A stretch of DNA of 64,000 bases from contig OZ024743.1 in NCBI GenBank assembly GCA_964016885.1, positions 203,732,001 to 203,796,000 on the forward strand. Direction: 5' to 3'. Shown piece after piece: positions 3,797 through 64,000 of the stretch. The notes below the pieces were generated by a model, which saw only the letters and a program-made list of their open reading frames with translations, did not search any database and was not told the DNA's origin. Both the position numbers and the translations under genes were made by a program. The DNA is from Eledone cirrhosa (taxonomy: Eukaryota). Position 1 is the stretch's first letter. Each line of letters opens with the position of its first letter.

Positions 3797-3857
<61 letters not shown>

Positions 3858-3978: not shown

Positions 3979-4016
<38 letters not shown>

Positions 4017-4250: not shown

Positions 4251-4308
<58 letters not shown>

Positions 4309-34127: not shown

Positions 34128-34225
34128 AGTAATAATAATAATTGTTGCTACTTTTGGCACAAGGCTAATAACTACCCCAGTACGTTACTGGTGCTTTATT
34201 TTATTGACCCCGTAAGTTAACCTCA

Positions 34226-34273
<48 letters not shown>

Positions 34274-34444
34274 TGTTTCTAATTTTGGCACAAGGCCAGC
34301 AATTACCCAGTACATTACTGGTACTTTATTGTATCGACCCCGTAAGGATGAAAGGCAAAGTTAACCTCGGCGGGATTTGAACTCAGACCGTAAAATGCTG
34401 GAAAGCATGGCGTCCGACTCTCTACTGATACTGCCAATCCACCA
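34128..34444 (-). mobile_element. two SINE-A copies separated by (AAT)n at the foot of the LINE array
   Basis: Truncated copy at ~34141-34226 and near-full copy at 34272-34444, each ending in (ATT)n on the - strand. Confidence 0.85.
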
Positions 34445-34464
34445 ATAATAATAATAATAATAAT

Positions 34465-37400
34465 ACTTTCTTTATTAACCACAAGGGTTTACATAAAGTA
34501 GACATTAAGGACAGTACAGGACAATACAGGACGGTACAAATGGCATTTCTGCGTGTAAAAAACAAAAACAGAGGATGTAACAAAAAAAATAACATTGGAT
34601 TTCTGGAAGTTGTCCATAGGCCCCGGCCCGAAAGTTCTTCCGAAGAGACTGGCTAGTTGATTTTCGTCGACGCCTAGAGTTTCCCCAAGTACGTCGTCGC
34701 TCTTCCCCTCCACTAATCCTCTATAGAACGCCAAGGTGGCGTTTCCACCGATCACATTGCCCGATTGGTCGAGGGCTGTGAGCGCCTGAAGACATTCCAG
34801 TCTCCAAGCGCTCACTTTCGGTCTTCGCTTGACCCAGGACTGCAGCTCCGTCAAGGAGACGAGCTGGGGAAAGACGCGTCTAGCAAACGGCGACCATACC
34901 TGATCACCGTAGAGGAAGAGGTGGAGATGTCGTAGCCTGAGCGCGTGTCTGCGCATCATCAGCCACGGCATGCCCAGCGATCCACGTAGCAGGTGTTGAC
35001 AGCAGATGGACCGCCTGACCATCGGAGCGCGTCCCTTCGACAAAAAGCGAAAGATCAAACGCTCCAGCGCAGTCAGGCGGGACTTAGGACAAGGTACAAC
35101 GGTCAGGTGGTAGTAGATGACGGACGCGAAGTACGCGTTAGCCACCTCCGCTCGACCTTTCAGGGATAGCTCCCTCTCCTGGGTGAGAGAAGCCACCCTG
35201 CTCGTCACCTCGTCCCAGTTTTTGTCCGTCTGGAGGTCCGGACCGAACCAGACCCCTGGCAATTTAACCAGTCCGTCCGTCCATCGCCCGACGACGCTGT
35301 TGGACGGCATGGACCTACCTCTCCAGGTGCCGAGCTGCAGGCCCACTGACTTTTCCTGGTTGATCATTGCTCCTGTCACCGCTTCGTATTCTCTTAGTAT
35401 AGTGCCGATCGCCTAGATGTGTTTGGCGTTCGACACCACTACGGTGACATCATCCGCATATGCTGACATGGATCTTCCGCATCCTAGTTCGCGCGGGACC
35501 CCCCTCAACGACTCCAGTTTGTGCAGTAATGGCTCGAGAGTCAATACTTACCAGAGGGACGAGAGGGGACATCCTTGAGCGCATGATGTTGAACGGTTCC
35601 TAAATGTGACCATTCACTCTCACCACAGAGCAGATGTCGCTGTGTATGGCAGCGATCCAGCCTCTGAAGACGTGCCTAAAGCCAGCCGCCCTCAGGACTG
35701 CCGATAGGTAACGATGGTCGACCCTATCGAAAGCTTTCGACTGATCTAAATGGATCAAGGACCCACCTGTGCCAGGTTCCCTAGCTACCCTCTCTACGAT
35801 GTATCGCATGAGGTGGAGGTTGTCGTGGATGGATCTGTCGGGAATGGCGCATGTCTGCGCCTCTCCCACCAGATCACCAACGAAAAGCGCCAACCTCTTT
35901 GCTAGCACCTTGGCCAAAATCTTGAACTCTGTGTTTAGCAGAGTTATGGGTCTGAAATTATCTATGTTATCCCCCTTGTTCGGATCCTTTCTCAGCAGTG
36001 CCACCGCCCTTCGGGTCACAGAGCTGGGAATTCTCCCGTTCTGTTGCCAGTTGCAGTAGACGTCCGCCAAGAGGCCTCCGAACAAGTCTGGTATCTGTAC
36101 GTAAAGTTCATAGGAGAGACCGTCCAAACCAGGCGATTTACCCCTTGTGCAGCAAGTCATTGCCTCCCGTACTTCAGCGGCTGCTATCGGCTTTTCGCAA
36201 CGCTCCGCCTCAGTGGCCGAGAGCCGCGGCAGTCCGTCGAGGTGGACACTAAAGTCCATCCCTCGACCCGGCCCGCCGATGCCCCCGAACAGCTGAGCGA
36301 AGTGTCGCTGAAAAGCTTCACACATTTTCCCGGGATCGTGTACATGCGCCCGTCGTGGTCCATCAAAGACCTGATCGTGACTTTGTTGCCACGACACGCC
36401 TCCGCCACTCGGGCCCATTGAACGGCTCTTGCACCTTCCTCCCCTATCCGCTAATCCCATACAGTCCCAGCGTGCATCTAAGATCCCGTTCCAGTCGCCC
36501 ACTCCACTAAATTGCGGGACGTTCCAAGAAAGGTCTCCAGATGCCGGAAGAAATCAGGGCGCCCTGCTCCTGTCGGGGCATAGACGGCCTCTAGCCTGAA
36601 AGTTTGCCCGTCTCCACTGGTCACGTCTAGCACCACCAACTTACCTTCTGGGTCCAGGAAGATGGCCCGTATGGCGAGATCCAAACCTCTCCGAAAAAGC
36701 ACGGCAACTCCTCCTCCCGATCCAGGACGCTGGGAGATGCGTACACATCGTAGCCGTCGAAGATAGGTGCGAAGGCCCGTGCTTCGGAGATTCTGGTCTC
36801 GCTGATGGCCACTACATCTATGTTTAGTGACCTGAGGTCGTTGAGCAGGTGGCCCTGCTTCCATGACGACTCCAAGCCACGCACTTGTATGCTGCCTATT
36901 CTGAGTGAGGTCATGTTGAAATGCAGTGGAAAAAATGGGAAAGACCACTTACCTTACTTCTCGTAGAGGAAGGATGGTTTCTCCATCCTTCTCACTGCTT
37001 GTTTCCTCCTCCGGAAGGATATCCTTATAAATCCTCCTGGAGAGTACTTGTCAGAAGTCTCCGATGTCTTTGGGGAATTTTTGTTTTAGTGTCGTGCACG
37101 TTTTCTGTGTGATGCGAGTGATTTGTATGTGATGCGAGTGATTTGTTTGTATGATGGTGTTGGTGTTTGTGGTGGTGGGGTTGGTGATGCTCGTGTGGAT
37201 GGTGGCATAGCTGTCCTAACTTTTTTGTTTGATAGTTTATTTGTTTCCCTCTGTATTTTGTTTTTGGAGGGGGAAGGAAGGGGATTTTTTTCTTTTTTGG
37301 TTTCTTTTTCTTTTTTTCATTTTTCCTGATACCGTTTCCCACTCCTCGTCGTCACAATCTATCTCCAGTTGCGATAGGTCGGGGAGTGGAAAAAACTCCA

Positions 37401-38888
37401 CAGGCGTTGGTTTTCGTTGTGGCGTAGTGGATGGTGTAGGCGCTGGTGCTAGTTCTGGCGCGTTGGGTGGTGGTGGTGTTGGTGTTGCTACTGTAGCTGG
37501 GGTTGTTGCTGTTACAGTTGTTTCTGTTTTTGCTGCTACAGTTGTTGCTGCCATTTCTGCTGCTGGTGGTGTTGCTGGTTGAGTCACTAGCGTGGGTAAG
37601 AGAGATGGCCTCAACCTTTTAGCCTGAGGGCAGAAAGCCCTTAGGTGGGTTCCTTCACCACAAACGACAGACCTAGGCCTTCTGTCCTCGACGATTACGG
37701 TAGGGTGGCTTCCGTCAGTGAGGTCTATTACCTCTGGGATCTCCTCAATGCTTTTTTGGTCCGCTTGGATCAGGAGCTCCATCCGAGATCCGGACCAGTT
37801 CTCCTGCTTTTCTTTCGCTATTTCGATTATCTTGGTGTTGGCCTCGATGCCGGCGAGGACGGCAGCCATTAGCCAGGGAATTTCGATGGCCGGTGGAACG
37901 TGGGTCACCCTGATCTTCACGAGTCTCTGGCCACCATAGCTTGGGACGAGTGTGAAGTCGTCACTTCTTAATGGGGCCACGGAGTGTTCTCTGGCCTCCT
38001 GTGGTGTTCCAAAGAACACGTCCACGGTTCCATATATCTGCCCAAGTCTGATGTGGGGTTTTTGCCCACACATTTCCCAAAGCATTTTGGATTTGGGACT
38101 CGGATGCCCGTTCCACTCGGCGCAATTTTATGTGAATCGTTCAATAAGACACGGTGCATAGGCGCCGATGCTCCATTTTATTAAGTGGGGGGGGCTGACC
38201 CTGTACCCATCTTTCTTTACCATTCTCTTGGCTTCATCTAATTCCTCCTGAGTTACTTGGATTGCTTCGCACTTTTTTGCTACTCTGGCAAAAGACAGGG
38301 TGGTTTTCTTATTCTCATTGTTGTTGTTGTTGTTATCGTTATTTTTGTTATTGTTATTTTTAGTTTCAGTTGTGGTGGTGGTGGCGTCAGTGGTGTTCCG
38401 TGTGGAAGAGTCCATTCTGGGTGAATCCATTTCGATGTCACGAGATAATTTATTTTTTTCTTTTGTTTCTGTTGTCGCTGTGGTGGATGGTGGTGGTAGC
38501 GGCTTCAACACCTGCAGTCATTGGTAATGGCGGGAAATGAATGTCTGCATGAGACAAATTTAAATTGTTGCTACTGCTTATATTTTTAGTGTTGGCAAAC
38601 GTAGTAATATTTACAATGGTGGTGTCGGTGTGAGGTGTTAGTTTGTGAGGAAGTTGTGACTCTGAGTCATCCAAGATATTTTTTCAAAGAAATTTTTTGT
38701 TTGATAATTATAAAAGTTTAAATTTTGGGCTCAAGGCCCCAATCTTTTTGAGTGTTCTTTTCCGAAAGCAAATTTTGTGACCTTATAAATAGTTCAACAA
38801 AAATTTTCCATACATGGCAATTTTAAACAAACGAAAACAACAAATCTTTGCGGAGCTCAAGATAATACGATTTCCTACGTAGGTCGCC
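34465..38888 (-). mobile_element. Tx1-like LINE copy 1 (family-A ORF2, divergent ORF1; internal deletions)
   Basis: ORF1 remnants at 36949-38674. ORF2 from 36914 with APE (GDWN) and RT (FRPITLLN, LDQSKAFDRV). Two deletions of ~0.6 kb. Bounded by (ATT)n. Confidence 0.9.
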
Positions 38889-38906
38889 AATAATAATAAT
38901 AATAAT

Positions 38907-41900
38907 GATTTCATTTATTCGCCACAAGGGCCGACATATAGGGGACAATACAAAAGAATGGGACAGTTGGGTTTTACAAAAAAATCGAGTAAACAATATG
39001 AATAACAATAACAAAGTAACAATAAATTTACAACAACAAAAAATTCCCCAATAGGGGGGATGACCACCCAGGGTTCGCTCAGGTACACCACCAATCCTGA
39101 ACGACCCGACGCTTCGAGAGCACCCTCGAAGGGCACCCCTCTCCGCCTCAAATTTACCTACCTACATGACCAGATTAGGCCCACTCACACATTCACCCAC
39201 CTTTCAGCAAATGTACTGGGGAGAAGCACTTCTCTCTCCACCCTCATCTTCCCTTCCAGGTGAAACTTGAAAAAGTTGATGAGGGATTGGCCGAAGAGAA
39301 AAGTGTCTGTCTTCAGCCCTTTCAACCTCGTCCACCATACAACCTCTTTCGCTACTGCCACCAGACAGAGGAAAATTGCTGCCCTTCCTAGCCAAAAGAA
39401 GGCGGCGGTTCGATCTTCACTATGTACACGGCCGGTAGCCGGATCCGTTCTACACGCGACAACAGCTGTTCAAAATAACTCCACAAGTCAGTAATGCACG
39501 GACATTGGACGAGTGCGTGCAAAACAGTTTCGTCGCTCTGCGCGCATCTCGGGGAGGTCCGTCTGACAGCACTTCCGTGCCTGTAGAGTTTATCTCGAAC
39601 CGGCATGACCCCCGGTAGCACTGCCAAGCGAGGGATTTTTGGAAATTATCCATCGTTCCCGGCTCGAAAGTCCTTCGGTACAGACTTGTTGGTTCGACTT
39701 CGTTGACTCCCAGAGCCTCTCCGTGTGCGTCGTCGCATTGCCCACCACTAATCCTCTATAGAACTCGAGAGTGGAAGTTCCACTGACCGCATTGCCCGCC
39801 TGGTAGAGGGCAGTGAGTGCCGGGCTACATTCCAGATGCCAGTCACCCAGTCTCGGTCTCTTCTTGACCCAGGACTGCAACTCAGTCAAAGAAACGAGCT
39901 GCGGAAAGGCCCGTCTGACAAACGGCGACAACACCTGTTCACCGTTTAGGCAGAATATCTGGAGATGCCGCAGCCTCAGCACGTGCCTGCGCATCATTAG
40001 TCACGGCATGCCCAGCCCTCCACGTAGAGGGTGCTGTCAGCAGATGGACCGCCTCACCAGCGGAACTTGTCCCCTCCACAAGAATTTGAAGAGGAGCCGC
40101 TCCAAGATGGCGAGGCGCGAATGGGGGCAAGGGACGACAGTCAGACGGTAGTAGATGACGGACGCGATGTACGCGTTCGCCACCTCCGCCCCACCTTTCA
40201 GTGATAGCTTCATCCCAGCCCATTTCTGGGTGAGACTGACTACCCTGCCCGTCACCTCGTCCCAATTGTTATCCATCTGGAGGTCTGGCCCGAACCAAAC
40301 CCCTAGCAACTTTACCGGTCCGTCCGTCCAGCGCCTAACGACGCTGTTGGACGGCATGGACTTGTGTCACCAGATGCCGAGTTGCAAGCCACCCACTTTT
40401 CCGGGTTAAGGTTTGCTCCCGTCAACCTTTCATATTCCTCCAATAAGTTGCCGACCACCTCGATTTCTAAGGTGTCCGACACCATCACGGTGATGTCACC
40501 CGCATAAGCCGACACAGCCTTTCCGCATCCCGGTTCGAGCGGGATGCCCTGCAACAGCTCCAGCTTCCGCAGTAAAGCCTCGAGAGTCAATAAGTACAGA
40601 AGGGAGGAGAGAGGGTACCCTTGACAGACCGATCGGGAGACCTGAAACGGTTGCGAGAGGTGGCCATTAATTTTGACCATCGAGCAGGTGCCGCTGTGCA
40701 TTGCAGCGATCCAGCTTCTGAAGACGGGGCCGAAGCCAGCCGCCTTGAGGACAGCCTCTAGGTATCGATCGTCGACCCTATCGAATGCTTTCGATTGATC
40801 TAAATTTATCAGAGACCCACCGAAGCCAGGTTTACACCATACCCTCTCTATGGTGTATCGCATTAGGTGGAGGTTGTCGTGTATGGACCTGGTTGGGATT
40901 GCGCAAGTTTGCGACGCCCCAACCAAATCCCCAGCAACAAGCGCCAACCTCTTCGCTAACACCCTGGCCAAAATCTTAAACTTTGTCTTGAGCAGAGTTA
41001 GGGGCCTGAAATTGTCTAATGTGTCCCTCTTGTTCTCGTCTTTCCTTATCAGAGTCACTACGCCCCGGCTCACAGAACTGGGAATACCCCCGTTTTGCTG
41101 CCAGTTGCAGTAGAGGGCTTTGAGGAGATTGAAGAACAAGTCTGGCATATTTACGTAAAGCTGTAGGGCAGACCATCCAAACCGGGTGACTTGCGCCTCA
41201 TCTAGCCGACAAGGGCGCCCTGAATCTCGGCTGATGTAATTGGCCTTTCGCAGCGGACAGCGTCAGCCGTCGAGAGTTGCGGCAAGCCATCGAGGTAGGG
41301 ACTGAAATCCGCCACCATCTCTGACCCGCCACTTCCCCCGAACTACCGAGCAAAATGTTGGCGAAAGGCAAAATGATGGAATCGCTCAGCTCGTGCCCGT
41401 CTCGGTCCGTCAAAGACCGAATCGTGGTTTATTACCACGCTGCGCCACTGCCACGCGAACTCATCGAACAGCTTTGGTTCCCTCGTTTCTCAGAGCACGC
41501 GCCTTAGCTCTGACAATGCAACCTTCGTGTTTCGCATTGAAGAAATGGTCTAATGCCATTCTCGCCGCTAGCACATCAGTTGCAATGCCACTACCAATAG
41601 CCTCGTCTAACTTATCTACCAACTCCCCCTTCTTTCTATTTTTCTCTAATACTACTTCTTTGCTAAACTCTATCGACATTACTCTAATCTCTCTTTTGAG
41701 AGCCCCCCACCATCTATTGTTGACGACTCCCCATGTCAACTTTTTCTTAACTAAATTGTTGACCTGGTCCCTGTAAGCCTTACGTGCTGGAAATGACATG
41801 TTTAGCTTCCAGTAACCACGTCTAAACCTACGCGTCTTATTTAGGTCGAACATACAGATCACAAATTTGTCATCTGAGTAGGTGACCGTTTCAAAACGTG

Positions 41901-44721
41901 GACAGCTTACACTATTTCTGTCTATTTTCCTAATGAATATCCTGTCTATATACGATCTAGATGACCCTATGCGGTTAGCCCAGGTCCACACTGGCGCATT
42001 AGGGAAATCTAGTCGGTACCTGTCAGGCATTTGGAACTGGCTGATCAGGTTCTTGAGGCTTTTGCACCTCCCGCTCTTATCAGATACTCCCACACAGTCC
42101 CAGCGTGCGTCTAAGATGCCCTTCCAGTCCCCCGCTAACAGTAAAGGGCGAGACGTACCCAGAAAGGCTTCCAGGCGTCTAAAGAAGTCCGGCCGTCCTG
42201 CCCCAGTAGGAGCATAGACGGCCACCAGTCTAAAGGCACGACCTTCGTTATTGTTCACGTCCAGGACCACCAACTTCCCGTCTGGGTCCTGGAAGATCGA
42301 CCATACCTCGAGATCCAGGCCTTTCCTAAACAGCACTGCCACCCCGCCTCCCATTCCCGACCGGCTAACAGATGCAAAGATCTGATAGTCGTCGAAAATG
42401 GGGGCTAGTGAGCGCATGTCGGAAATCCTGGTCTCGCTGACAGCAATTACATCTATTTCTAGAGACCTGAGGTCGTTGAGCAGGTGACCCTGCTTCCAGA
42501 ACGATCCCAGGCCTCGAACATTTAAACATCCTACTCTTAATACGGCCATGTTGGCAGATTAAAAAGAGAGAGAGGAAAGGTTTACTTACATTCCGGGCTC
42601 TTGTAAAGGTCGGGTTGTTCGACCTCCATAGTTGGTGGGGTTTATTTTGGAAACCCCTTTAAAAGTCTTGAAGTGGATTTTACGTTCGGGGTTCCCAGGA
42701 AAGTTGTCTCGTATTTCTTTGAATATGTCGATCGACATTCGCACCAGAACCAGATCTTCCGGCACGCGAAATGTGCTCGATTTAAAGATGTCCCCCTCTT
42801 TTAGTATATTTTCAGTTCCCTGTTGGCCCTCCTGACGAGCACGAAGTTTTGTATGTTTTGTTGGTGTGATTTTATTTGTTTGCGTGGCTGTGGTGGTGAT
42901 GGTTTTGGTGGTGTTGTTTCGGTTGTATCTGTGTTTGTTGTGAGTGCGGTGTCTGTGGTTTCAGATGTTTGTGTGTATATTTGTTCTTGCGTCTGTTTCG
43001 GTTGTTTGCGTTTGGGGGATTCTGGTGATGGTGATGGTGGTGTTGATGTTGGTGTTATTGGAGAGATGTTTGCGTGGGTGGTGTCTGCGTTTTTTATTGT
43101 GGGTGATTTTGTGCTTTGTTGAGCTTTTTTTTTCTTTTTGTGTTTCCTTTTTTGTATTTTGGGGGATTTTGGTTTCCCTCATCTTCACTACTGGTAGATG
43201 AGGGGTCTGTGTCTGTAAGTGTGTCTGTATGTATGTTTATGGTTTTATTGGTGTGTGTATTTGGTGGGGGGGGGATTTCAAGCTTTCCTCGTTTCCCCCC
43301 CTGGGTGGTCAATTTTGTTGGTGGTCTTTCTATTGGTGTTGTTGTTGGGGGTTTTGCCGGTGCTGGTGTTGGTTGTGGTCCTCGCCCCGGCGTCGGCAGC
43401 AGTGGAGTCTTTCAACCTCTTGCCTCTTTCAGCAGTTGAGGGCAGAAGGCTCGCAAATGGGTCTTTTCCCCACAAACAAAACACTGCGGCCTTTTGCCTT
43501 CGGTCATAATGTGAATGACCGTCCCATTCTGAAGGTGGATGTGGTCCGGGATTGTCTTCACATTCTCGGGCCTGATCTGGAGAAAGATCTCCAGGTCAAC
43601 CCCGGACCAGTCCTCTCTGGCCGTTCTGGTCACTTCTATAGGGATGGTATCCGTCCCCTCCATAATCACACATCCCAGAAGCCACCACATGTCAAGTCCT
43701 GCTGGGATTCTGGGAATGCGGAGACGGGCCGTTCCTTTTCCCATGTGGGAGGGGTACATTATGACCTTGCTGGTTTTTCAAGGAGTCATAGCGTGTTTCA
43801 TAGCGAGGGCTTCTGACTTGAACAACACCGAATTGGTGCAGTACCCTCTGCCCCTCTCTATGTATTCGGTGTCTTCTCTGATGCACATCAGTGCGACTTC
43901 GACATCTGCTTGTGGGATTAAAGCTGCCCTTTTGGTTTGTGCTGAAATGCATCTATAATGCACCGTTCTGCGCTCCACTGCCTCAATAGCTTCTACCGGG
44001 ACAGTTAAGTTGGCCCAGGTTTGCTCTTGCTTGATGAGCTTCCATGCCTTGGCCAACTTTTCATCTTTGTTTGAGAGGTCCATGTTAATGCATGGCCTCT
44101 GTTTTGCTGCTGCCGCAGCGAAAGTGTTCTTCTTGTTTTCGTTGGGGGTGTTGTTGTCGTTGTCGTTATTCTTGTTGGTGTTGTTGTTATCACTGTCGCT
44201 GATATCATTGTTGTCTTTGTTGCCACCGTTTTTCTCGGTGCAGTTGGTATTGTTGCTGTTGGTGTTGTCGCTATTTGTTTTCATGTTAGTGGTGTTGATA
44301 TTGTTGTTGCATTTGTTATTTTTTATTTTTGTTATCTGTATTTTCGTTGTCGCTGTTACTGTCATTTTTTTCAAAATTAGAGTTCTCATTGGTATCATTG
44401 GTGTCTTTGTTTACATTGTTTGTGGTGGTGTTTGTGTTATCAAATTGTGTTAATTTCGCTGTAGCGCTCCTCTCAACTTCTACGTCGTTGTCGCACGCCC
44501 GCAGACATATCACTGGGGTCGTAGCTCAGCCATGTTTTTTTTTCTCCGTAAATTTTTTAAAATGTAAAAAAAGTTCAAATATTTGGGCCAAAAGGCCCAA
44601 ATATTATACTTTGCCCTTTACAGGGCAAAGTCTAAGGGCTTATATCCCTTACACAACAAGAAATATTTAACAACAAATAAAGCGACTTACTGGGAGCGAG
44701 CAAAATACATCCGATTAGACC
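38907..44721 (-). mobile_element. Tx1-like LINE copy 2 (family B), full-length, frameshifted
   Basis: ORF1 44533-42586 with CCHC (CFVCGEKTHLRAFC). ORF2 from 42549 with APE, RT (SAYAGD) and C-terminal CCHC-like region. Bounded by (ATT)n. Confidence 0.9.
41461..42549 (-). pseudogene. ORF2 APE endonuclease domain of copy 2
   Basis: LNVRGL...SETR...VYAP...GDW...IDRIF...SDDK, followed by WKLN. Confidence 0.85.
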
Positions 44722-44747
44722 AATAATAATAATAATTATAATAATAA

Positions 44748-44977
44748 GTGGCAGTTAAAAAGGATTTGGAACTGCCATGAGATCAAGGTCGTTCCGATTG
44801 TCATAGGAGCACTAGGTACTATTTCAAAGATTTTCCAAGGATGGTTAAAGAAGATTAGTCCAGCCCTGTTTTTTGGAACACTTCCAAAGGCATGTTTGCT
44901 GGGAACAGCAAGAACCCTCTGATACGTCCTGAACAACTGCTGCTTGATATTCATTTGAACAAACTGTGACTCAAAGA

Positions 44978-44978
<1 letters not shown>
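44748..44978 (+). mobile_element. 5'-truncated R4/Dong-like RLE retrotransposon fragment in (TAA)n
   Basis: Translates KWQLKRIWNCHEIKVVPIVIGALGTISK...LPKACLLGTARTL*YVL, the R4/Dong-type C-terminus. Flanked by (TAA)n on both sides. Confidence 0.8.
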
Positions 44979-45031
<53 letters not shown>

Positions 45032-45269
45032 TTTTCTATATTAACCACAAGGGTTTACATAAAGTAGACATTAAGGACAGTACAGGACAATACAGGACGG
45101 TACAAATGGGCATTTCTGCGTTTAAAAAAAACAGAGGATGTAATAAAGTAACAAAGGAAAATTCCCCAATAGGGGGGAGACTTCCGAGGGACATTTGTGG
45201 AGAAAGCCCATTAAAAGATAACAGTGACCCTCACCACCAGGGCAAGTGCCCTCTCCCAGTTTTCCACCT

Positions 45270-48200: not shown

Positions 48201-48694
48201 AGCCTCTTGCACCCTCCTTCCCTCTTGCACCACTCCACACAATCCCAGCGTGTATCTAAGATCCCGTTCCAGTCGCCCACTAACACTAAAGAGCGGGACG
48301 TTCCAAGATAGGTCTCCAGACGCCGGAAGAAATCAGGCCACCCTGCTCCTGTCGGGGCATAGACGCCCACTAACCTGAAAGCTTGCCCGTCTCCGCTGGT
48401 CACGTCCAGCACCACCAACTTACCTTCTGGGCCAGGAAGATGGCCCGTATGGCAAGATCCAAACCTCTCCGAAAAAAGCACAGCAACTCCTCCCCCCGAT
48501 ACCGGACGGCAGGGAGATGTGTACACATCGTAGCCGCCGAAGATCGGTGCGAAGGCCCGTGCTTCGGAGATTCTGGTCTCGCTGATGGCCACTACATCTA
48601 TGTTTAGTGACCTGAGGCCGTTGAGCAGATGACCCTGCTTCCATGACGACCCCAAGCTACGCGCATTTATGCTGCCTATTCTGAGTGAGGTCAT
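45270..48694 (-). pseudogene. ORF2 (APE + RT + C-terminal CCHC) of copy 3
   Basis: 880-aa ORF with GDWN, YLDR, TDH, SPGLDG, LDQSKAFDRVD and SAYADD; continues in the 45328-46230 frame to RCAQGDETVLHALVQC. Confidence 0.9.
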
Positions 48695-48729
48695 GTTTAA
48701 AATAGAGTAGAAAAGATGGGAAAGACCAC

Positions 48730-50851: not shown

Positions 50852-51085
50852 GTTGTTTTTTGTTTAAAATAAATATTGGGCACAAAACCCCAATAAGCAG
50901 TTATTTAACTCCGAAGGGCCAAATAACGGGCAGAAAGACCCCTCTCACGAGGAGGAGGGTGTTTTTGTCTACAAGTTGGTTAAAGTTTTAAACAATTTAC
51001 AATTGTTATAGCGGTCAAAATTTACAATACCTTACAGAGCCGAGCCTCCGTCAACCATAGCATTCAATAATAACAATAATAATAA

Positions 51086-51130
51086 TTGTTTCTTCTTTAG
51101 GCACAAGACCAGCAATTACCCAGTGCATTT
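51086..51130 (-). mobile_element. SINE-A 3' fragment between copies 3 and 4
   Basis: TTGTTTCTTCTTTAGGCACAAGACCAGCAATTACCCAGTGCATT matches the SINE-A tail. Confidence 0.8.
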
Positions 51131-54100
51131 GATTTCTTTATTGGCCACAAGGGCTGACATCAAGAAAAAACATCACAGACGGAACAGGATGGTACGATGT
51201 GGGTTTTGTGCGTGTAAATATTTTTATTATTTATATAAGAAAAGAAAAATGACATAAAACATATATATACATAAACAATAAAATGAAAATTGAAACAATG
51301 AAAAATTGCCCAATAGGGGGGAAACCTCTGAGGGTGACTCGTGGCGAAAACCACACATAAGACCACGGCCACCCTGACTACCAGGGCAAGCGCCCTCTCT
51401 CAATTTTTCCATCTCTCAAACTACAGACGTATATTCAGAGTGGTCCCGTTCACTCGGACCATTCTCGCTACATTCACCCACCTTTCAACAAACTTGCTAG
51501 AAAGCAGCACTTGCCTCTCCACCCTGCTTTTATCTTCAAGTGAAACTTGAAAATGTTAATCAGGGATTCGCCGAAGAGGAAAGTGTTTGTCTTTAATCCT
51601 TTTAACCTTGTCCACCACACAATCTCTTTTGCCATGGCCACCAGGCAGATGAAAACCGCCTGCCCTTCCTCCTCAAAGGAAGACGGCGAGACCATCTGCA
51701 CAATGGACTCAGTCGACAACCAGATCAGTCCCCACACGTGACAGCAACTGTTCGACATAGCTCCACATGTCAGCAATGCTCGGGCACTGAACGAGTGCGT
51801 GCACAACGGTTTCCTCGCTATGCGCGCATCTCGGACAGGCTCGGCTGACGGCACTTCCGTGCCTATAGAGCTTATCTCGAACCGGCAGCGCTCCCCGGTA
51901 GCACTGCCAGGCCAGGGATTTTTGGAAGTTATACATAGGCCCCGGGCTGAAAGTTCTCCGGAAGAGAGCAAGCATCTGATCTTGTTCGACGCCCAGGATC
52001 TCTCCGAGAACGTCGTCGCTCTTCCCCTCCACTAGTCCTCTATAGAACGCCGAGGTGGATGTTCCACCGATACTGGAGCCCAACTGAGAGAGGGCAGTGA
52101 GCGCCTGGAGACATTCCAGTTTCCAAGCGCTATCCCTCGGTCTTTTTCTGACCCAAGACTGCAGCTCCGTCAAGGAGACGAGCTGTGGAAAAATGTGCCT
52201 GGCAAACGGCGACCACACCCGTTCACCATCAAGGAAGCACCAGAGATGTCGTAGCCTCAGCGCATGTTTGCGCATCATCAGCCATGGCATGCCCAGTCCT
52301 CCACGCAACGGGTGTTGACAGCAGATGGATCGTCTGACCATGGGAGCACGTCCCTTCCACAAAAAGCGGAAGAGGAGGCCTTTCAGGGACAGCTTCCTCT
52401 CAGCCCATTTCTGGGTGAGGGAGGCCACCCTGCTCGTCACCTCGTTCCAGTTTTTCTCCATCTGTAGGTCCGGTCCGAACCAGACCCCGAGCAATTTAAC
52501 CGGTCCGTCCGTCCAACGCCCCACGACGCTGTCGGACGGCATGGACTTGCCTCTCCAGGTGCCTAGCTGCAAGCCCACCGACTTTTCCTGGTTTATCTTT
52601 GCTCCTATCACCGTTTCGTATTCCTTGAGAGCGGTGCCGAGCATCTGGACGTGTCTGGTGCTCGACACCACCACGGTGACGTCGTCAGCGTAAGCCCACT
52701 CGGATTTCCTGCATCCTAGTTCGCGTGGGACTCCCCTCATCGCCCCCAGTTTGTGCAGTAACGGCTCGAGAGCCAATACGTACAAGAGGGACGAGAGGGG
52801 ACAACCCTGGCGGACTGAGTGCATGATGCTGAACGGTTGCGACAGATGACCATTCACGCTCACAACTGAGCAGATGTCGCTGTACATTCTTGCGATTCAA
52901 CGCCTGAATACGGGCCCGAAACTGGCTGCCTCGAGGACCGCCGCCAGGTACCGATGGTCAACACTATCGAATTCTTTGGATTGATCAAAGTTGATCAGGG
53001 CCCCACCCTTGCCAGGTTCCTTAACCGCCCTCTCTATGATGTATCGCAAGAGGTGGAGGTTGTGGTGTATGGATCTGTCCGGGATGGCGCATGTCTGCGC
53101 CTCTCCCACCAGACCCTTGACGACAAGCGCCAACCTCGTTGCTAACACCTTGGCCAAAATCTTGAACTTTGCGTTTAGCAGGGTTATGGGCCTGAAATTA
53201 TCAATAACATCCCCCTTGTTCGGGTTTTTTCTCAGTAGCGCCACTGCTCCCCGGCTCACAAAACTGGGAATGCTCCCGTTCTGCTGCCAGTTGCAGTAGA
53301 CGTCTGCCAAGAGGTCACCGAACAAGTCTGGCATAAATGCATAAAGCTCGTAGGGCAAACCTGGCGATTTACCTCTTGTGCAATTAGCCATCGTTATTGG
53401 CTTTTCGCAACAGTGTGCTGCGGTCGTCGTGAGCCGAGGCAGTCCGTCGAGGTATGCACTGAAGTCCATGTCCCGATCCGGGCCGCCGGCGCTCCCGAAC
53501 AGTTCAGTAAAGTGCTGCTGAAAAGCTTCACACATCCGCTCGGGTTCGAGCATCACGGACCCGTTTTGGTCAGACAAAGACCGAATTGTGGCTTTGTTGC
53601 CACGTCGCGCCTCTGCCACCCGGGCCCATTGGACGGCTTTTGTCCCCTCGTGTTTCAGAGCACGCGCTCTAGCTCTGACAACGCAGCCTTCGTGTTTTGC
53701 GTTGAAGAATTGGTCGAGTGCCAATCTCGCCGCAAGCACGTCGGTTGCGATACCTGTCCTAAACGCCTCTTCTAGCTTTCTGACTAGCTCTCCCTCTACT
53801 CTATTTTCCTCTATCACTACTCCTTTAATTGCCCTTTTCAGGGCGAATCACCACCTGTTGTTGACGACCGCTCCCGTCAAGGCCCGCTTAACTAATACGC
53901 TAATCCGGTCTCTGTAGGCTTTGCGCGCCGGGAAAAACGCGTTCAGCTTCCAGTAACCAGGCCCTTGTCTATGAAGCCTGTCTATGTCGATCTCACAGAT
54001 CACAAATGTGTGGTCTGTGTAGTCGACTATTTTAAATTGTGGACAACTTATACTAGCATTATCTAGTTCTCTGCAGAATACCCTATCTAGATACGATCTG

Positions 54101-57041
54101 GATGACCCGATACCGTTTGTCCATGTCCACATTGGCACATTCGGGTGATCCAGTCGATACCTGTCAGACAGTTCAAAATGTCTGAGCAGGTTGGTGAGGT
54201 TCTTGCACCCTTCTCCCCTATCCACTAGCCCCACACGATCCCAGCGTGCATCCAAGATACCGTTCCAGTCGCCCACTAACACTAAAGAGCGGGACGTTCC
54301 AAGAAAGGTCTCTAGACGTCTGAAGAAATCTGGCCGTCCTGCCCCTGTTGGGGCGTAGATGGCTACTAGCCTGAAAGCATTGCCTTCGCTGCCGGTCACG
54401 TCCAGCACCACCGACTTACCTTATGGGTCTAGGAAGATGGCACGTATCGCGAGATCCAAGCCTCTCCGAAAAAGGACGGCAACCCCTCCCCCGATCCTGG
54501 ACTGCTGGGAGATACGTATACATGGTAGCCGACGAAGATCGGCGTGAAGGCCTGTGATTCGGAGATTCTGGTTTCATTGATGGCCAGGTGACCCTGCTTC
54601 CAAGATGACCCCAGGCCACGTGCATTTATACTGCCTATTCTGAGTACAGCCATGTTGGATGAGAAACGGGGCAAGTGAGAAAGGATCACTTACCTTGTTC
54701 GTGTGGTGAAGGGACAGTAGAAGCGTCCCTTGTGCTGGTCATGGGTGTTTCCAAGAGGATGTCAGTGTATATCCTCTTGGCAACCGCCCCTCTGAAGTCT
54801 CCAACTGCGTTGGGGAATTTTTGTTTTAAAGGTTTGTACTGTTCTATTGAAATTTCGATGATGCTTATGTTTGTCAGGAGAGTTCTTGGTGTTGGTGGGG
54901 TGTAGTAGTTTTTTTCTGTGACGTCTGTGTGCTGCTTTATATATTGTATGAGTTCTTTTTTTGCCATGTTTATGGCTGTGTACTTTTGGGGGGAGGGGTG
55001 ATTTTGTTGCTGTTTTCTTCTTGTTGCGGTTTGGTGTGTGTGTCTTGTTGTGTTTGCGTTGTTGGTGTTTGTGGTGGCGATGGTGGTGGTGTTGCTGCAA
55101 GTTTCCTTGCTGCCTTTACCCCTCTTTGTATGCCTTCGCTGTTGGAGGGTGAATCTAATGTTTTTTTTTGTTTTTTGTTTTTTGTGGCAGACTGTTTGCC
55201 ACGTCACTCCCGCCTCAAACTCCATGTCGGATTCTGTGGCGTCTGGGAGGGGTATGTGCTCCACTGCCGTTGGTGGTGGTAGTGGAGCCTCTTCGGCAAT
55301 TTTGTTGCTGGTGTAGCTACTTCAAATGTAGCTATTGGTGTTGCCGCTACTGATGATGCTGCTTTAGTTATCCGTGGACTTGGTACTGGTGCTACGGACG
55401 TTGCCCTCCTACTCACCGTGGAAGGGGCTTCTTCGTTTGTTGCCTGCCCTGCTCTTGGCAGCAGCGGAGCAGGTATTGGAAGGAGGGGGGCCTTCTTCGC
55501 TGTCTTCTGCGGGTAAAAGGCCCTGAGGTGACCCTTCGACCCACAGAGATAACATTTTGGCCGTCTTCCTTCTACACTTATAGGGAGTTGGAGTCCTTCC
55601 TCGATGTCTATGATATCGGGGATAGCGTCGATACATTCCTGGTCAGTTTGTATAAGCATTTACATGCCTATACCTGACCAGTTCTCTCTCCCTATTTGTT
55701 CTACTTGCAGCATGGTCGCTCTGTTCTCGATTCCTGCAAGGAGAGACGCGGCCAGCCAAGGTATGGGCACGTCGGGTGAGACCTGGGTCACACGAACCTC
55801 ACAATTTTCTTCCCGCAGTAGGAGGGCACCAAGACTATCTCCTCACTCTTTAGGGTTTCCAAAGAGTGAGACTTTGCTTCCTGGGGTGTGGCGAAAAGTA
55901 CGTCTACTGTGGCGTACTTTCTGCCTCGGGTGATGTGGGTTTTGCCGGCCCAGACGCACCCCAAGGCCTTTTGGATTTGAGCCTCCGTGGCACTCTTTAT
56001 TCGATGTGAGATTTTACTTACGGTGCGGTAAGTCAGCGTCTGTAGCTGCTGGTCCTTGAAAAAATCTGGTGGAGTGTTCAGGGAAACTCTATTTGTGCTT
56101 CTTGTCACCATGGCCCTTGCGACTGCCATCTCCTCCACTGTGACTAACACTGTCTCGATATTTCGGGCGACACCTGCAAAAGAAGTGGTCCCTTTTTCAG
56201 CAGCACCACTATTGCTGCCGCTACTGGTCTTACTGGTGGTGATGAGATCGCTATTACAGGTATCGGTGTCATTGTTGTTGTTTTCGTTGGTACAGTTGTT
56301 GGTGTTGTTGTTTTCGTTGATACTCTTGCTGTTGTTACTGTTATTGTGGCTGTTGTTATTATTGTTGTTTTTGTTGATACTGTTCCTACTATTATTGTTG
56401 TTGTGGCTGTTGTTATTGTCATTGTTATTGTCGTTCTCGACCTTACCGCTGTTATTTTTGTTATTGTCGTTCTCGACCTTACCGCTGTTATTTTTGTTAT
56501 TGTCGTTCTCGACTTTACCGCTGTTATTTTTGTTGTTGCTGTTGTTATTGATGGTGTTGTTGTTGGTGTTGTTGTTGGTGTTATTGTTGGTGTTGTTTGT
56601 GTTAGAAATATTTGTTAATTTTAAATCTGTAACAATCTTTTTTTCCTTTGTAATATTTTCGTTTGTATTTCCTTTGTAATATTTTCGTTTGTATTTCCTT
56701 TGTAATATTTTCGTTTGTATTACCTGGAACGCTGTCTTGTTGACATGCTGATAAAGTCTCTCTCTCTCTCTCTCTCTCTCTGTTGTCTGACAGCGTCTCT
56801 CTCTTTCTTGTGTTATCCATGTTGAAATTTTTCAAAAAAAACATGTTTACACAAATACGAATACGAATACGACACCCTGTAAAGGGGTGCGGTATTATTT
56901 ACTAGTGAACCCCTGTATGAGGTGGGTCACTTCTTCTAAACTTTTATTAAATGTAAAACTTGAATAAAAGGTTTAGAACGGTTGAAAACGAGGTAAAACG
57001 TTGAAAAAAAAACTGGAGGCGATAAGAAGCGTGGCTTCACC
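51131..57041 (-). mobile_element. Tx1-like LINE copy 4 (family C), full-length, frameshifted
   Basis: ORF1 ~56820-54686 (CYLCGSKGHLRAF). ORF2 from 54653 with AYADD and CPRCAHSEETVVHALVQC. Confidence 0.9.
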
Positions 57042-57058
57042 AACAATAATAATAATAA

Positions 57059-57117
57059 TTGTTTCTACTTTGGCACAAGGCCAGCAATTATCCAGTGCAT
57101 TACTGGTACTTTATTTT
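57059..57117 (-). mobile_element. SINE-A 3' fragment between copies 4 and 5
   Basis: TGTTTCTACTTTGGCACAAGGCCAGCAATTATCCAGTGCATTACTGGTACTTTATTTT, flanked by (AAT)n. Confidence 0.85.
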
Positions 57118-57126
57118 AATAATAAT

Positions 57127-60100
57127 GCTTTCTTTATTAACCACAAGGGTTTACACAAAGTAGACATTAAGGACAGTACAGGACAATACAGGACGATACA
57201 AAAGGGCATTTCTGCTTGTAAAAAAACAAAAAACAGAGGATGTAATAATAGAACAATGAAAAAATTCCCCAATAAGGGGGAGACTTCCGGGGGACTTTCG
57301 TTGAGAAAGCCCATTAAAAAGCCACAGTGACCCTGACCACCAGAGCAAATGCCTCTCCCAGTTTTCCATCTTTAATTTACAGACACAGACTCAGAGTAGG
57401 CCCATTCACTCGGGCCATTCTCGCTTCTCTCACCCATCTTTCAACAAAATGCTGGGAAGAGAGCACTTCCCTCTCTACCCTGATTTTCCTTTTCAAATGA
57501 AATTTGAAAAAGTTAATCAGGGCATCACCGAAGAGGTAAGTGCTCGTCTTCAGCCCTTTCAAGCGTGTCCACCATACTATCTCTTTCGCCATGGCCACCA
57601 GACAGATAAAAACTGCCTGCCCTTCCCGGCTAAAAGAATAGGGCGGGGCATCCTCACGATGGACTCAGCTGATAGCCGGATCCGTCCTACACGCGACAGC
57701 AGGTGTTCGACATAAACCCACAAGTCAGCAATGCTCGGACACTAGACGAGTGCGTGCAGGACGATTTCGTCGCCCTGCGCGCATCTCCCATATGCCCGGC
57801 TGACGGCACCTCCATGCCTGTAGAGTTTATCCCGAACTGGCAAAGCTCCTCGGTAGCACTGCCAGGCCAGGGATTTCTGGAAGTTGTCCATAGGCCCCGG
57901 CCCGAAAGTTCTTCCGAAGGGATTGGCTAGTTGATTTTCGTCGACGCCTATAGTTTCCCGAAGTACGTCGTCGCTCTTCCCCTCCACTAATCCTCTATAG
58001 AACGCCAAGGTGGAGTTTCCACCGATCACATTGCCCGATTGGTCGAGGGCTGTGAGCGCCTGAAGACATTCCAATCTCCAAGCGCTCCCTCTCGGTCTTC
58101 CCTTGACCCAGGTCTGCAGCTCCGTCAAGGAGACGAGCTGGGGAAAGACGCGTCTAGCAAACGGCGACCACACCTGAGCAACGTCGAGGAAGAGGTGGAG
58201 ATGTCGTAGCCTGAGCGGGTGTCTGCGCATCATCAGCGACGGCATGCCCAGCCCTCCACGTAGCGGGTGTTGACAGCAGATAGACCGCCTGACCATCGGA
58301 GCGCGTCCCTTCCCCAAATAGCGAAAGAAGCAAACGCTTCAGCGCAGTCAGGCGGGGCTTAGGACAAGGTACGACAGTCAGGCGGTAGTAGATGACGGAC
58401 GCAATGTACGCGTTAGCCACCTCCGCATATGCTGTTACGGATCTTCCGCATCCTAGTTCGCGCGGGACCCCCTCAACAACTCCAGTTTGTGCAGTAATGG
58501 CTCGAGAGTCAATACGTACAAGAGGGACGAGAGGGAACATCCTTGGCGGACCGAGCGCATGATGTTGAACGGTTCCGAAAGGTGACCGTTCACTCTCACC
58601 ACAGAGCAGATGTCGCTGCGCATGGCAGCGATCCAGCCTCTGAAGACGGGCCCAAAGCCAGCCGCCCTCCGGACTGCCGCTAGGTAACGATGGTCGACCC
58701 TATCGAAAGCTTTCGACTGATCTGAATTGATCAAGGACCCACCTGTACCAGGTTCCCTAGCTACCCTCTCTACGATGTATCGCATGAGGTGGAGGTTGTC
58801 GTGGATGGATCTGTCGGGAATGGCACATATCTGCGCCTCTCCCAACAGACCACCAATGACAAGCGCCAACCTCTTTGCTAGCACCTTGGCCAAAATCTTG
58901 AACACTGTGTTTAGCAAAGTTATGGGCCTAAAATTATCTATGTTATCCCCCTTGTTCGGATCCTTTCTCAGCAGCGCCACAGCTCCTCGGCTCACAGAGC
59001 TGGGAATTCTCCCGTTCTGTTGCCAGTTGCAGTAGACGTCCGCCAAGAGGCCTCCAAACAAGTCTGGCATTTGTACGTAAAGTTCATAGGGCAGACCATC
59101 CAAACCAGGCGATTTACTCCTTGTGCATCCAGTCATTGCCTCCCGTGCTTCAGCGGCTGATATCGGCTTTTCGCAACACTCCTCCTCAGTGGCCGAGAGC
59201 CGCGGCAGTCCGTCGAGGTAGACACTAAAGTCCATCCCTCGATTCGGCCCGCCACTGCCCCCGAACAGTTGAGCGAAGTGTCGCTGAAAAGCTTCACACA
59301 TTTGCCCGGGATTGAGTAGCATGCGCCAGTCGTGGTCCATCAAAGACCGGGTCGTGGCTTTGTTGCCACGACGCGCCTCCGCCACTCGGGCCCATTGAAC
59401 GACTTTCGTCCCCTCGTGTTTGAGATCACGCACCCTAGCTCTGACAACGCAGCCTTCGTGCTTTGCATTGAAGAATTGGTCAAGGGCCAATTTCGCCGCA
59501 AGTACGTCGGTCGCGATGCTTTTGCTAAGCGCCTCGTCTAATTTTCTAATTAGTTCTCCCTCTGCTCTATTTTTCTATATAGCTAAAGCCTTATTAAACC
59601 GAATGGACACTATTCTAATCGCTCTTTTCAGAGCAAACCACCACTTGTTGTTAACGATGGCCCCTGTCAACGCCCGCTTAAAGTTCGCTAATCCGTGTCT
59701 GTAGGCCTTGCGCGCTGGTAAGGACGCGTTTAGCTTCCAGTAGCCGGGTCCTCGTCTATGAAGTCTATGTAACTCAAGCACACATATCACGAATTTGTGG
59801 TCCGTGTAGCTGACTATCTTGAATTGTGGACAGCCTATGCTATAACTATCTATTTCCCTACAAAATACTCTATCTAGATATGATCTGGATGACCCTATGC
59901 GATTTGTCCAAGTCCACATTGGCACATTCGGGAAATCCAATCGGTACCTGTCAGACAGTTCAAAACGCCTGAGCAGGTTGGTGAGGCTCTTGCACCCTCC
60001 TCCCCTATCCGCTAATCCCACACAGTCCCAGCGTGCATGTGAGATCCCGTTCCAGTCTCCCACTACCACTAAAAAGCGGGACGTTCCTAGAAAGATCACC

Positions 60101-62657
60101 AGACGCCGGAAGAAATCAGGCCGCCCTGCTCCTGTCGGGGCATAGACGTCCACTAACCTGAAAGCTTGCCCGTCTCCGCTGTCACGTACAGCACCTCCAA
60201 CTTATCTTCTGGGTTCAGGAAGATGGCCCGTATGGCAAGATCCAAACCTCTCCGAAAAATTACACCAACTCCTCCCTCCTATCCCGGACGGCTGGGAGAT
60301 GCGTACACATTTTAGCCGCCGTAGATCGGTGCGAAGGCCCGTGCTTCGGAGATTCTGGTCTCGCTGATGGCCACTACATCTATGTTTAGTGACCTGAGGT
60401 CGTTGAGCAGGTGGCCCTGCTTCCATGACGACCCCAAGCCACGCGCATTTATGCTGCCTATTCTGAGTGAGGTCATGTTGAAAAGGAGTGGAAAAGATGG
60501 GAAAGACCACTTACCTTACTTCTCGTAGAGGAAGGATGGTTTCTCCATCCCTTTTCACTTCATCGTCTGGTGAAGGGACCGTTGAATCGTCACTTCAGCT
60601 GGTCGTCGGCTCTTTTGTGAGTATATCCGAATATACTCTCCGGATGAGTGTCCCTCCTAGGTCTCTGAAATCACCAACTGCGTTGTGGAATTTCGTTTTA
60701 ATGTTTGTGTATTGTTTCTGTGCTATTCTTACCAGTCTTATGTTCGTTTTGTGTTTTGATTGGTGCTGGTATTATGTAGTCGTGCTGTGAAATGCCTGTG
60801 TGTTCAATTATGTAAGTCATTAGTTTCTTGTTGTGTGTATTTATTGCAGTGAATTTGTTTTTCTGTGGGTGCGGTTCCGCTATTTTCTTGTCGTTGTTGC
60901 TGGGTGTGTGTGTTTTGTTGTTGTGTTTGCCATCCCTCTCCCACCTCACACTCCATGTCCGAATCTGTGAGGTCGGGGAGGGGTACCAGCTCCACTATTT
61001 CACTTGTTGTTGGTAATGTTTGCAGTGGAGTTACTGTTGCAGCTGCAGTTGGTATTACTGTTGTTGTTAATATTTCCACTGCTGCTGCTGTTCTTGATTT
61101 CCGTGGCGTGGGTATGGGTGCAACGGAGCCATCCTTCCTGGTTGCCGCCTGTCCTGTTGCTGGTAGCAGTGGAGCCGGTTTCGGAAGGAGGATGGTTTTC
61201 TCCTTTCTCAGGGTCGTCTCATTGCAGAAGGCCATGAGGTGAGTCTTCGATCCACAGCGAAATCATTTCGGGCGTTTGCCCTCAACACTTATGGGCAGTT
61301 GAGTGCCGTTATCGAAGTCTATCACATCCGGGATAGCTTCGATGCACACCTGGTTGGTTTGGATTAACATCTCAATGGAGGTGCCGACCCAATTTTCTCG
61401 TACTTTTTTCTGTGTTTGTAGTACAGTTGTTTTGTCCTCGATTCCGACGAGGACAGACGCGGCCAGCCAAGAAGAGCCATCCCGGAGGGGGGGGGGGTCA
61501 GTTTAAGCCTCACAATTTTTTGCCCGCAGTAGGAGAGCACCAACACCATTTCCTCGTTCCTTGGGGTCACTAAGGATTGAGCCTTTGCCTCTTGGGGTGT
61601 GGCAAAAAGCACGTCCACGGTGGCATATTTCTTGCCTCGGGTGATATGCGTTTCCCGCTGCCACACAGACCCTAAGGCTTTTTGTATTTGAGCCTCTGTG
61701 GCTCTTTCAACCCTACGAGATTTTGTGCTTACTGTAGTGCTGTTGGGTTTCGAAAAAATTTTCGGCTGCCTTGCAGATTGCTCGGTGTCCGGTTTTCGCC
61801 ACCATCTTCTTTGCTTCCTGTAATTCTTCATTTGTTATAAGGATGGTTTCCAGGTTCTTTGCGATACCTGCAAACGAGATTGGTTTTCTTTCTTGTTGTT
61901 GTTGTAGTCGTCGTCAGAGCTGCTGTTACTTTTGTTGTTGCCGCTGGTACTACGACCGCCGCCGCCGCTGTTGCTGTGGTTGTTGTTGTTGTTGCTGCTG
62001 CTGCTGCTGCTGATGTTGTTGTTGCTGTTGTTGCTGCTGCTGCTGCTTGCTGCTGCTGTTGTTTATGCTGCTGCTGATGTTGTTCCGGCTGCTACTAGTG
62101 TTTTCCTTGTCACTGTTGCTGCTGCTGCCGTTATTACGGCTGCTACTGCTATTCTTCATGACGTCAGATGAATGAAATGGCTTTGCGTATTTACCGCACA
62201 CATTTTTCGTCGTTGTCGTCGTCGTGGAGGAATGTTCCACGGTATGCACGTTCTCTTGGTGAAAACTACCAGAAACTATATTTTTCTTTTTCTTTAAGGG
62301 CGTCGCTTGCGAAAGAAGCGACACCACATTTAGAGAAGGGAGGGAGAGAGACAATCTTCTCTCTGATGTAATTACGATTGAGGAAGAAGAAGACGGAAAG
62401 AGTGGGAGTGACTTGTGAACATTCTTTTTTATAGCCATGTTTTTTTTTTTACGGTTTAAAATGAATATTGGGCACAAAACCCCAATAAGCGGTTATTTAA
62501 CCCCGAAGGGCCATATAAAGGGCAGAAAGACTCCTCTCACGAGGAGGAGGGTGTTTTTATCTACAATTTAGTTCAAGTTTTAAACGATTTACAATTGTTA
62601 TAGCGGTTAAAAATTACTATACCTTACAGAGCCGCGCCTCCGTCAACCAGGGCATTC
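57127..62657 (-). mobile_element. Tx1-like LINE copy 5 (family A), intact ends, internal deletions
   Basis: Closely similar to copy 3 from the 5' UTR to the 3' end. A deletion removes the DD of the RT YADD motif. Confidence 0.9.
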
Positions 62658-62687
<30 letters not shown>

Positions 62688-62689
<2 letters not shown>

Positions 62690-64000
62690 TTTCATTTATT
62701 GGCCACAAGGGCCGACATATAGGGGACAATACAAAAGACTGGGACAGTGGGGTTTTACAGAAAAATCGAGTAAACAATATGAATAACAATAACAAAGTAA
62801 CAATAAAGTAACAATAAAATTACAACAAAAAATTCCCCAATAGGAGGGATGACCACCTAGGGTTCGCTCAGGTACCCCCACCAGTCCTGAACGACCCAAA
62901 GCCTCGAGAGCACCCCTCTCCTCTTCAAATTTACCTACCTACAGCCGCATGATCAGAGAAGGCCCACTCACTCGGGCCATTCCGCCACATTCACCCACCT
63001 TCAGCAAATGTACTGGGGGGCAGCACTTCTCTCTCCACCCTCACCTTCCTTTCCAAGTGAAACTTGAAAAAGTTGATGAGGGATTGGCCGAAGAGAAAAG
63101 TGTCTGTCTTCAGTCCTTTCAACCTCGTCCACCATACAACCTCTTTCGCTACTGCCACCAGACAGAGGAAAATTGCTTGCCCTTCCTGGCCAAAAGAAGG
63201 CGGCGGGTCGATCTTCACTATGGACTCGGCCGATAGCCGGATCCGTTCTACACGCGACAACAGCTGTTCAACATAACTCCACAAGTCAGTAATGCACGGA
63301 CACTGGACGAGTGCGTGCAGAACGGTTTCGTCGCTCTGCGCGCATCTCGGGCAGGTCCGTCTGACAGCACTTCCGTACCTGTAGAGTTTATCTCGAACCG
63401 GCAGTGACCCCCGGTAGCACTGCAAAGCGAGGGATTTTTGGAAATTACCCATCGTCCCCGGCTCGAAAGTCCTCCGGTACAGACTGGTTAGTTCGACTTC
63501 GTTGACTCCCAGAGCCTCTCCGAGTGCGTCGTCGCACTCGCCCCCCACTAATCCTCTATATAACTCGAAGTTCCACTAACCGCATTGCCCGCCTGGTAGA
63601 GGGCAGTGAGTGCCTGGCAACATTCCAGATGCCAGTCACCCAGTCTTGGTCTCTTCTTGACCCAGGACTGCAACTCAGTCAAAGAAACGAGCTGCGGAAA
63701 GACCCTTCTGACAAACGGCGACCACACCTGTTCACCGTTTAGGCAGAATATCTGGAGATGCCGCAGCCTCAGCGCGTGCCTGCGCATCATTAGCCACAGC
63801 ATGCCCAGCCCTCCACGTAGAGGGTGCTATCAGCAGATGGACCGCCTCACCAGCGGAACCTGTCCCCTCCACAAGAATTTGAAGAGGAGCCGCTCCAAGA
63901 TGGCGAGGCGCGAACGGGGGCAAGGGACGACAGTCAGACGGTAATAGATGACGGACGCGATGTACGCGTTCGCCACCTCCTCCCCACCTTTCAGTGATAG
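62688..64000 (-). mobile_element. Tx1-like LINE copy 6 (family B), cut by the window edge
   Basis: 3' UTR and ORF2 C-terminus (CPRCAQSDETVLHALVQC) closely similar to copy 2. Confidence 0.9.

Follow-up and report, generated by a model that had tools for sequence, protein, structure and literature searches.

A LINE lineage of the L1 group is the likely driver of an abundant SINE in the octopod Eledone cirrhosa

A LINE lineage of the L1 group likely mobilizes SINE-A, a very abundant element of the octopod Eledone cirrhosa. The two occur together in the window studied here, by which we mean the whole stretch of 64,000 nt that was analysed (contig OZ024743.1, positions 203,732,001 to 203,796,000). 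We consider the partnership likely because the elements have similar 3′ tails, use the same target, leave duplications of the same length and start point and overlap in age, and because the strongest rival LINE fails as a partner. With less assurance, we favor a model in which the LINE enzyme depends on a hairpin when it recognizes its template. An earlier note on this DNA had proposed a stringent LINE/SINE partnership; the partnership is borne out by tail, target, scar and ages, while stringent recognition of a stem-loop is retained here as a model. The pairing would point to a probable source of mobility for this very abundant SINE of octopods, would account for same-strand arrays of LINEs and SINEs in microsatellites and, as an animal pair with young open-frame LINE copies, would be experimentally tractable.

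On the minus strand, from 34.1 kb to the right edge of the window, six L1-group LINEs stand head to tail, and the simple repeats between them hold nested copies of SINE-A (Table 1). The CTTGT loops that the earlier note had reported for families A, B, C and SINE-A are all present on this strand, as are the spacing of 12–13 nt between stem and repeat and the common GAAA; behind family C, at 51131, a SINE fragment rather than (ATT)n comes next. Families A, B and C are 74–81% alike in ORF2 and on this measure make up one lineage. In the family A copy at 45031..51065, ORF2 encodes an APE endonuclease, RT and zf-RVT, and a frameshift near 46100–46250 splits the frame. Same-strand order is also found behind 185 ATT-type LINE ends (overlapping loci counted in), where 21 SINEs run in the direction of the LINE and none in the opposite one.

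Table 1. Elements of the LINE/SINE-A array, in window positions
Feature	Position	Strand	Hairpin	Loop start	Remarks
SINE-A, 5′-truncated	34143..34225	-			array end
SINE-A, near full-length, short subfamily	34274..34443	-	34298-34286	34294	in (ATT)n run behind LINE
LINE, family A ORF2 and 3′ end, other 5′ region	34465..38888	-	34489-34477	34485	internal deletions
LINE family B, full-length	38907..44721	-	38932-38920, one stem mismatch	38928	ORFs broken
LINE 3′ fragment, presumably Dong/R4-like	44746..44980	+			75% to L075 copy; tail-to-tail with family A, same microsatellite
LINE family A, full-length	45031..51065	-	45055-45043	45051	
SINE-A, 3′ fragment	51087..51130	-		51107	abuts family C
LINE family C, full-length	51131..57041	-	51154-51144, 3 bp	51151	ORFs broken
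SINE-A, 5′-truncated	57060..57118	-	57083-57071	57079	within (ATT)n run behind family A
LINE family A, full-length	57127..62657	-	57151-57139	57147	ORFs broken
LINE family B, 3′ part	62688..64000	-	62713-62701	62709	zf-RVT; runs on past right window edge

Several further features of the window and of the other retroelements accompany this array. The ORF2 and 3′ end of family A occur with two different 5′ regions and ORF1s (38888 versus 62657 and 51065), which suggests 5′-end swapping as in mammalian L1. Tandem multimers of SINE-A, with short and long subfamilies mixed, lie on the minus strand at 26462–27307 and 30646–31126, and their spacers are repeated, 11–20 nt long and open with the target motif. 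The window also holds a 2.1-kb array rich in (CAA)n (2975–5084) and a 26-nt unit in 19 copies (5498–6003). The clade labels CR1, RTE, Dong/R4 and Penelope of other elements are tentative and based on their motifs, and the Dong/R4-like label of the fragment at 44746..44980 likewise on its C-terminal motif. Dong/R4-like LINEs also stand tail-to-tail with Tx1-like ends in the same microsatellite at L008, L021, L075 and L142, reading it as (TAA)n on their own strand, and an RTE-type family is similarly placed against the (TATC)n group (L034); the same microsatellite targets are used by unrelated LINE clades from opposite strands. A CR1-type family (L091–L120, L273–L292) has a 945-aa frame, copies that are mostly 98–100% alike, a longer 3′ hairpin and an element-made (ATT)n without target duplication, and a 3′ fragment of it lies at about 27319–27350 of the window (minus strand). 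An RTE-type ORF on the minus strand of L052 (2580–5000) has a PHD finger behind the RT (Pfam PF00628, E 1e-5) and ends in (ATG)n. We discounted the Dong/R4-like, RTE-type and Penelope-like elements as candidate partners of SINE-A.

The array LINEs belong to the L1 group (L1 plus Tx1), as shown by their domain set, two ORFs, 5′ truncation and target duplications. Pfam matches in ORF2 are Exo_endo_phos, RVT_1 and zf-RVT (APE endonuclease, RT and a C-terminal cysteine zinc motif), and the best solved relative is human L1 ORF2p (E 1e-42, against 5e-19 for R2). A young copy, L374, carries two ORFs with frames of 715 and 1204 aa, and truncated copies of the array lineage have target duplications of 13–20 nt. 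ORF1 of the young copy contains one C-x2-C-x4-H-x4-C (CCHC) motif by pattern, for which Pfam gave no zf-CCHC match, and Pfam found no Transposase_22 in ORF1; a CCHC knuckle without Transposase_22 is consistent with Tx1 (PMC5203782, available part). Matches to the LINE protein in the homologue search included no named Tx1 element, the sole named close homologue being from Argonauta hians (56%). We describe the LINEs as Tx1-like, a putative assignment drawn from the ORF1 knuckle and target preference. Among young family A copies, an ATT run lies 5′ in 36/39 and 3′ in 38/39, against a background of 7.4% for the ATT motif. A sister LINE group at about 30% DNA distance (L151–L190, L203–L232) instead targets (TATC)n, with a TATC run at 30/39 of its copies, and keeps the same 3′ end; the group is young, and copies of one (TATC)n-targeting family are 99–100% identical. 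This change of target within the lineage, (ATT)n in one group and (TATC)n in the other, makes the endonucleases worth comparing.

SINE-A is non-coding and dispersed, occurs in forms of 183 and 214 nt, and includes 5′-truncated copies with duplications. Neither ARAGORN nor Rfam found a tRNA head in it, and box-like (A/B) motifs were seen by eye against the consensus; it is presumably a Pol III transcript. It may resemble the named octopus SINEs (OK, OR1, OR2) or the MetaSINE superfamily. Variation among subfamilies lies in the 6-nt spacer and in the outermost pair of the stem, and the inner stem, loop and GAAA are constant. A 580-kb sample contained 56 SINE ends, 10 LINE ends of the ATT type, 6 of the TATC type and 3 of the CR1 type, and rough extrapolation from the 56 to the 3.0-Gb genome gives about 300,000 copies. 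SINEs make up 11.6% of the Octopus vulgaris genome according to the available part of PMC13282606, and the supplement of PMC4824008, file 1 aside, contained no match to SINE-A.

The tail of SINE-A resembles the LINE tail of this lineage more than any other that we sampled. Ends of other retroelements came from targeted searches and from the three largest contigs, sampled at even spacing in 58 stretches of 10 kb each (580 kb in all), and the comparison held the last 25 nt in register and used 2000 base shuffles of the LINE end; the motif was picked after inspection, so that all p values are optimistic. Three SINE ends were 14–18/25 identical (56–72%) to six LINE-family ends of the lineage (p ≤ 0.009 each). 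None of 11 other retroelement ends of the genome matched better (7–12/25, lowest p 0.047), and one CR1/L2-type end gave a local, out-of-register match (p 0.004–0.04). The SINE end is equally close to the (TATC)n-targeting and the ATT families. All LINE families have AATAAA directly behind the stem, whereas the SINE has none. A genome-wide search with hybrid patterns found no LINE with the exact stem of SINE-A, and the combination of SINE stem and LINE spacer matched four times, always in SINE copies. Among 59 of 80 distant metagenome L1/Tx1-like loci examined, many of them without a 3′ end, no hairpin preceded AATAAA, and several of these loci end in poly(A); the lack of the motif in these distant relatives may mean that it was gained within the present lineage. 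We also saw short ends flanked by ATT in which the loop has 6 nt or the stem is altered (L109, L133, L234, L049) and which may be further LINE families or another SINE.

The shared end can be drawn as a small hairpin, for which covariation of the inner pairs is suggestive only. We aligned 15 representative ends (11 LINE and 4 SINE, leaving out the 6-nt-loop type of L109 and L133). Of 45 cells for the three inner pairs, 44 are paired, which agrees with the stem-loop first proposed; its description as covarying holds less well, given that the outer, fourth pair forms in 6/15 ends and fails in 9/15 and that no more than two double changes are independent, one in family A (G-C to A-U) and one in the SINE (C-G to G-C), the latter also readable as the loss of one pair. 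The rough post-hoc chance of two such changes is 0.004. The covariation check gave a score reached by 0/500 shuffles, which has no reading as a probability because the rows are related, and which comes from the two events alone. Nor could it be confirmed that the stem changes are largely compensatory, as had been claimed: the outer pair is an A.C mismatch in family C and U.U in 45/112 short-subfamily SINE copies, and the family B copy at 38928 has a mismatch. Two middle positions of the loop (C-x-x-G-U) vary between families with the pairs kept. Folding of the last 60 nt predicted stem pairing of 0.58–0.96 in five LINE end types, 0.28 in the sixth and 0.20–0.59 in SINE ends (0.20 in the U.U subfamily), and in seven such ends the fold showed no gain over shuffles (z -1.76 to +0.38). 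Medians for full-length SINE RNA were 0.05–0.06, and in one full-length SINE the hairpin was present in the minimum-energy fold and missing from the centroid. Several LINE ends also yield a predicted longer lower stem of pyrimidine tract and A-rich spacer; the consensus fold lacks this stem, which is likely compositional.

Insertion scars link the two elements independently of the hairpin. SINE-A and the array-lineage LINEs leave duplications of 13–20 nt whose first base lies immediately behind the element. From all gathered loci, a non-random sample, we took 160 distinct SINE copies whose 3′ end is intact; 75 of them have a duplication of at least 10 nt from that base, compared to a mean of 19.5 and a maximum of 29 in swapped-flank controls, and 63 of the 75 duplications, mostly 11–21 nt long, include letters other than ATT. 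The 3′ flanks open with the ATT motif in 122/160 copies and with TATC in at most 1/160, and 96/160 have two or more ATT units, so that the SINE's target is looser than that of the LINE. Duplications of 13–20 nt with unique letters are found for LINEs at L034, L073, L029, L206, L221, L260, L378 and L381. The bulk count for ATT-type LINEs (27/41, control 24.6) shows no excess and is uninformative because their flanks are pure repeat. Comparison of target duplications, one of the checks proposed earlier, thus gave the same length and start point for SINE-A and the LINE lineage. Because the duplications of both begin at the element end, (ATT)n is mostly duplicated target and not an element-made tail.

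The proposed comparison of ages also agreed, as a young open-frame LINE family stands beside young SINE copies. The best 40 hits to the family A end were all 100% identical over 731 nt, and a frame of 1195–1204 aa is present in 28/39 family A copies examined. For the SINE, nearest-neighbor identity in the sample was 78–100%, with an identical twin over 100 nt for 8/52.

These observations are consistent with a model in which the LINE enzyme copies SINE-A, probably by way of the predicted 3–4-pair hairpin and GAAA at the RNA end. The endonuclease of the ATT-type ORF2p would nick an ATT run while the protein grips the last 25 bases of the RNA. The RNA would read through into its own ATT flank, its AUU would pair with the nicked strand, and reverse transcription would begin exactly at the element end, for which reason no tail would be added. 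Each insertion would leave ATT runs that attract the next, building same-strand arrays. LINEs keep AATAAA in the spacer, and the SINE has let its spacer drift while keeping hairpin and GAAA. Choice of template and partner would need both the end motif and AUU read-through: the motif cannot be the sole key, since the young TATC group has it, yet SINE-A avoids (TATC)n. More tentatively, this animal lineage of Tx1-type LINEs may have evolved a stringent 3′ recognition of its own (3-pair hairpin, C-x-x-G-U loop and GAAA), with no tail and with priming by read-through into the target microsatellite, and may drive this SINE of some 300,000 copies. If true, SINE-A would count among the main components of octopod genomes, and the sister groups, one for (ATT)n and one for (TATC)n, would offer a natural test of template choice in the L1 group, with RNA motif and target pairing as its two keys.

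A rather unlikely alternative keeps the partnership and relaxes the recognition, so that AUU read-through, perhaps with GAAA, would be all that the enzyme needs for pairing at the nicked target. The common 25 bases would then be the relic of an old template switch, which LINEs keep for 3′-end processing around AATAAA; that signal sits right behind the stem in all their families, as in distant poly(A)-ending relatives. Weak covariation, poor predicted pairing in the whole SINE RNA and a motif common to families with another target all fit such a history, and in the available text of PMC4494074 SINEU, which Tx1 drives, ends in poly(A) and is paired by target alone. Against it, the SINE has lost AATAAA and still keeps the inner stem, loop and GAAA across subfamilies, and both double changes fall on partner positions with pairing kept.

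It is improbable that another LINE moves SINE-A, whether the (ATT)n-tailed CR1-type family, the (TA)n-flanked CR1/L2-type family or one that went unsampled. The CR1-type family is young (93–100%) and ends in (ATT)n, but its hairpin is different and longer, it matches the SINE at 9–10/25 in register, its duplications (2/22) equal the control (1.9), and the ATT motif lies 5′ in 5/22. The CR1/L2-type family, despite its local match to the SINE end, likewise reaches 9–10/25 in register, and in 12/12 copies (TA)n follows. The repeats at RTE-type ends are different ones, and that of the Dong/R4-like elements is read from the opposite strand; the survey, of 580 kb plus targeted searches, is far from complete. 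Coincidence or convergence of short A/U-rich ends beside the same microsatellite seems more improbable still: the likeness spans only about 25 bases, but 6/6 LINE-family ends and 0/11 others fall below p 0.04 in the anchored test, and the scar does not depend on the motif.

The stem-loop model favored here for the array lineage is that of stringent L2, CR1 and RTE pairs such as eel UnaL2/UnaSINE1, for which the need for the 3′ stem-loop was shown by experiment; unlike SINE-A and its LINE, those pairs belong to other clades and carry element-made terminal repeats. Among L1-clade elements, a 3′ end in common between LINE and SINE, as here, is described for monocot LINE1-1_ZM with ZmSINE2/3 and Chlamydomonas L1-1_CR with SINEX-3, and these pairs, like the hairpin predicted here, combine a conserved loop with a stem that varies and with a conserved motif of 4 nt on its 3′ side (PMC3472496 and PMC3747384, available parts). 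The plant and algal pairs have about 50–80 nt in common, poly(A) or poly(T) ends and hairpins of -11 to -18 kcal/mol (same parts of these sources), whereas the present pair is from an animal, with about 25 nt in common, a 3–4-pair hairpin, no tail and a microsatellite target. The contrast that the note drew with mammalian L1, which relies on poly(A), survives in a milder form, since stringent L1-clade pairs in print (PMC3472496, part available) make the equation of the L1 group with relaxed recognition less absolute.

Crocodilian SINEU and Tx1-Mar were, as here, paired through the same target and overlapping ages, but SINEU has snRNA heads, poly(A) ends and a DNA-transposon target, and the available part of that report gives 5′ heads in common and no 3′ motif (PMC4494074). 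Insertion into one particular microsatellite, as here, is also described for other L1-group LINEs, namely Kibi, Koshi and crocodilian Tx1 families, and such Tx1 elements are known from fish and crocodilians; their targets are (TC)n, (TTC)n, (TTCC)n and (TTTC)n, compared to (ATT)n and (TATC)n in our two sister groups, and the same available text names no partner SINE for them (PMC4494074). The searched literature describes 13 recently active L1-Tx1 families in O. vulgaris. Within the searched literature, which included available parts of PMC4824008, PMC13282606, PMC4758252, PMC10294476, PMC5203782, PMC5786205 and PMC8967140, we found neither an animal Tx1/SINE pair with a common 3′ end nor a partner for SINE-A. 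Stringent L1-clade pairs are known from plants and algae, and Tx1-driven SINEs from crocodilians.
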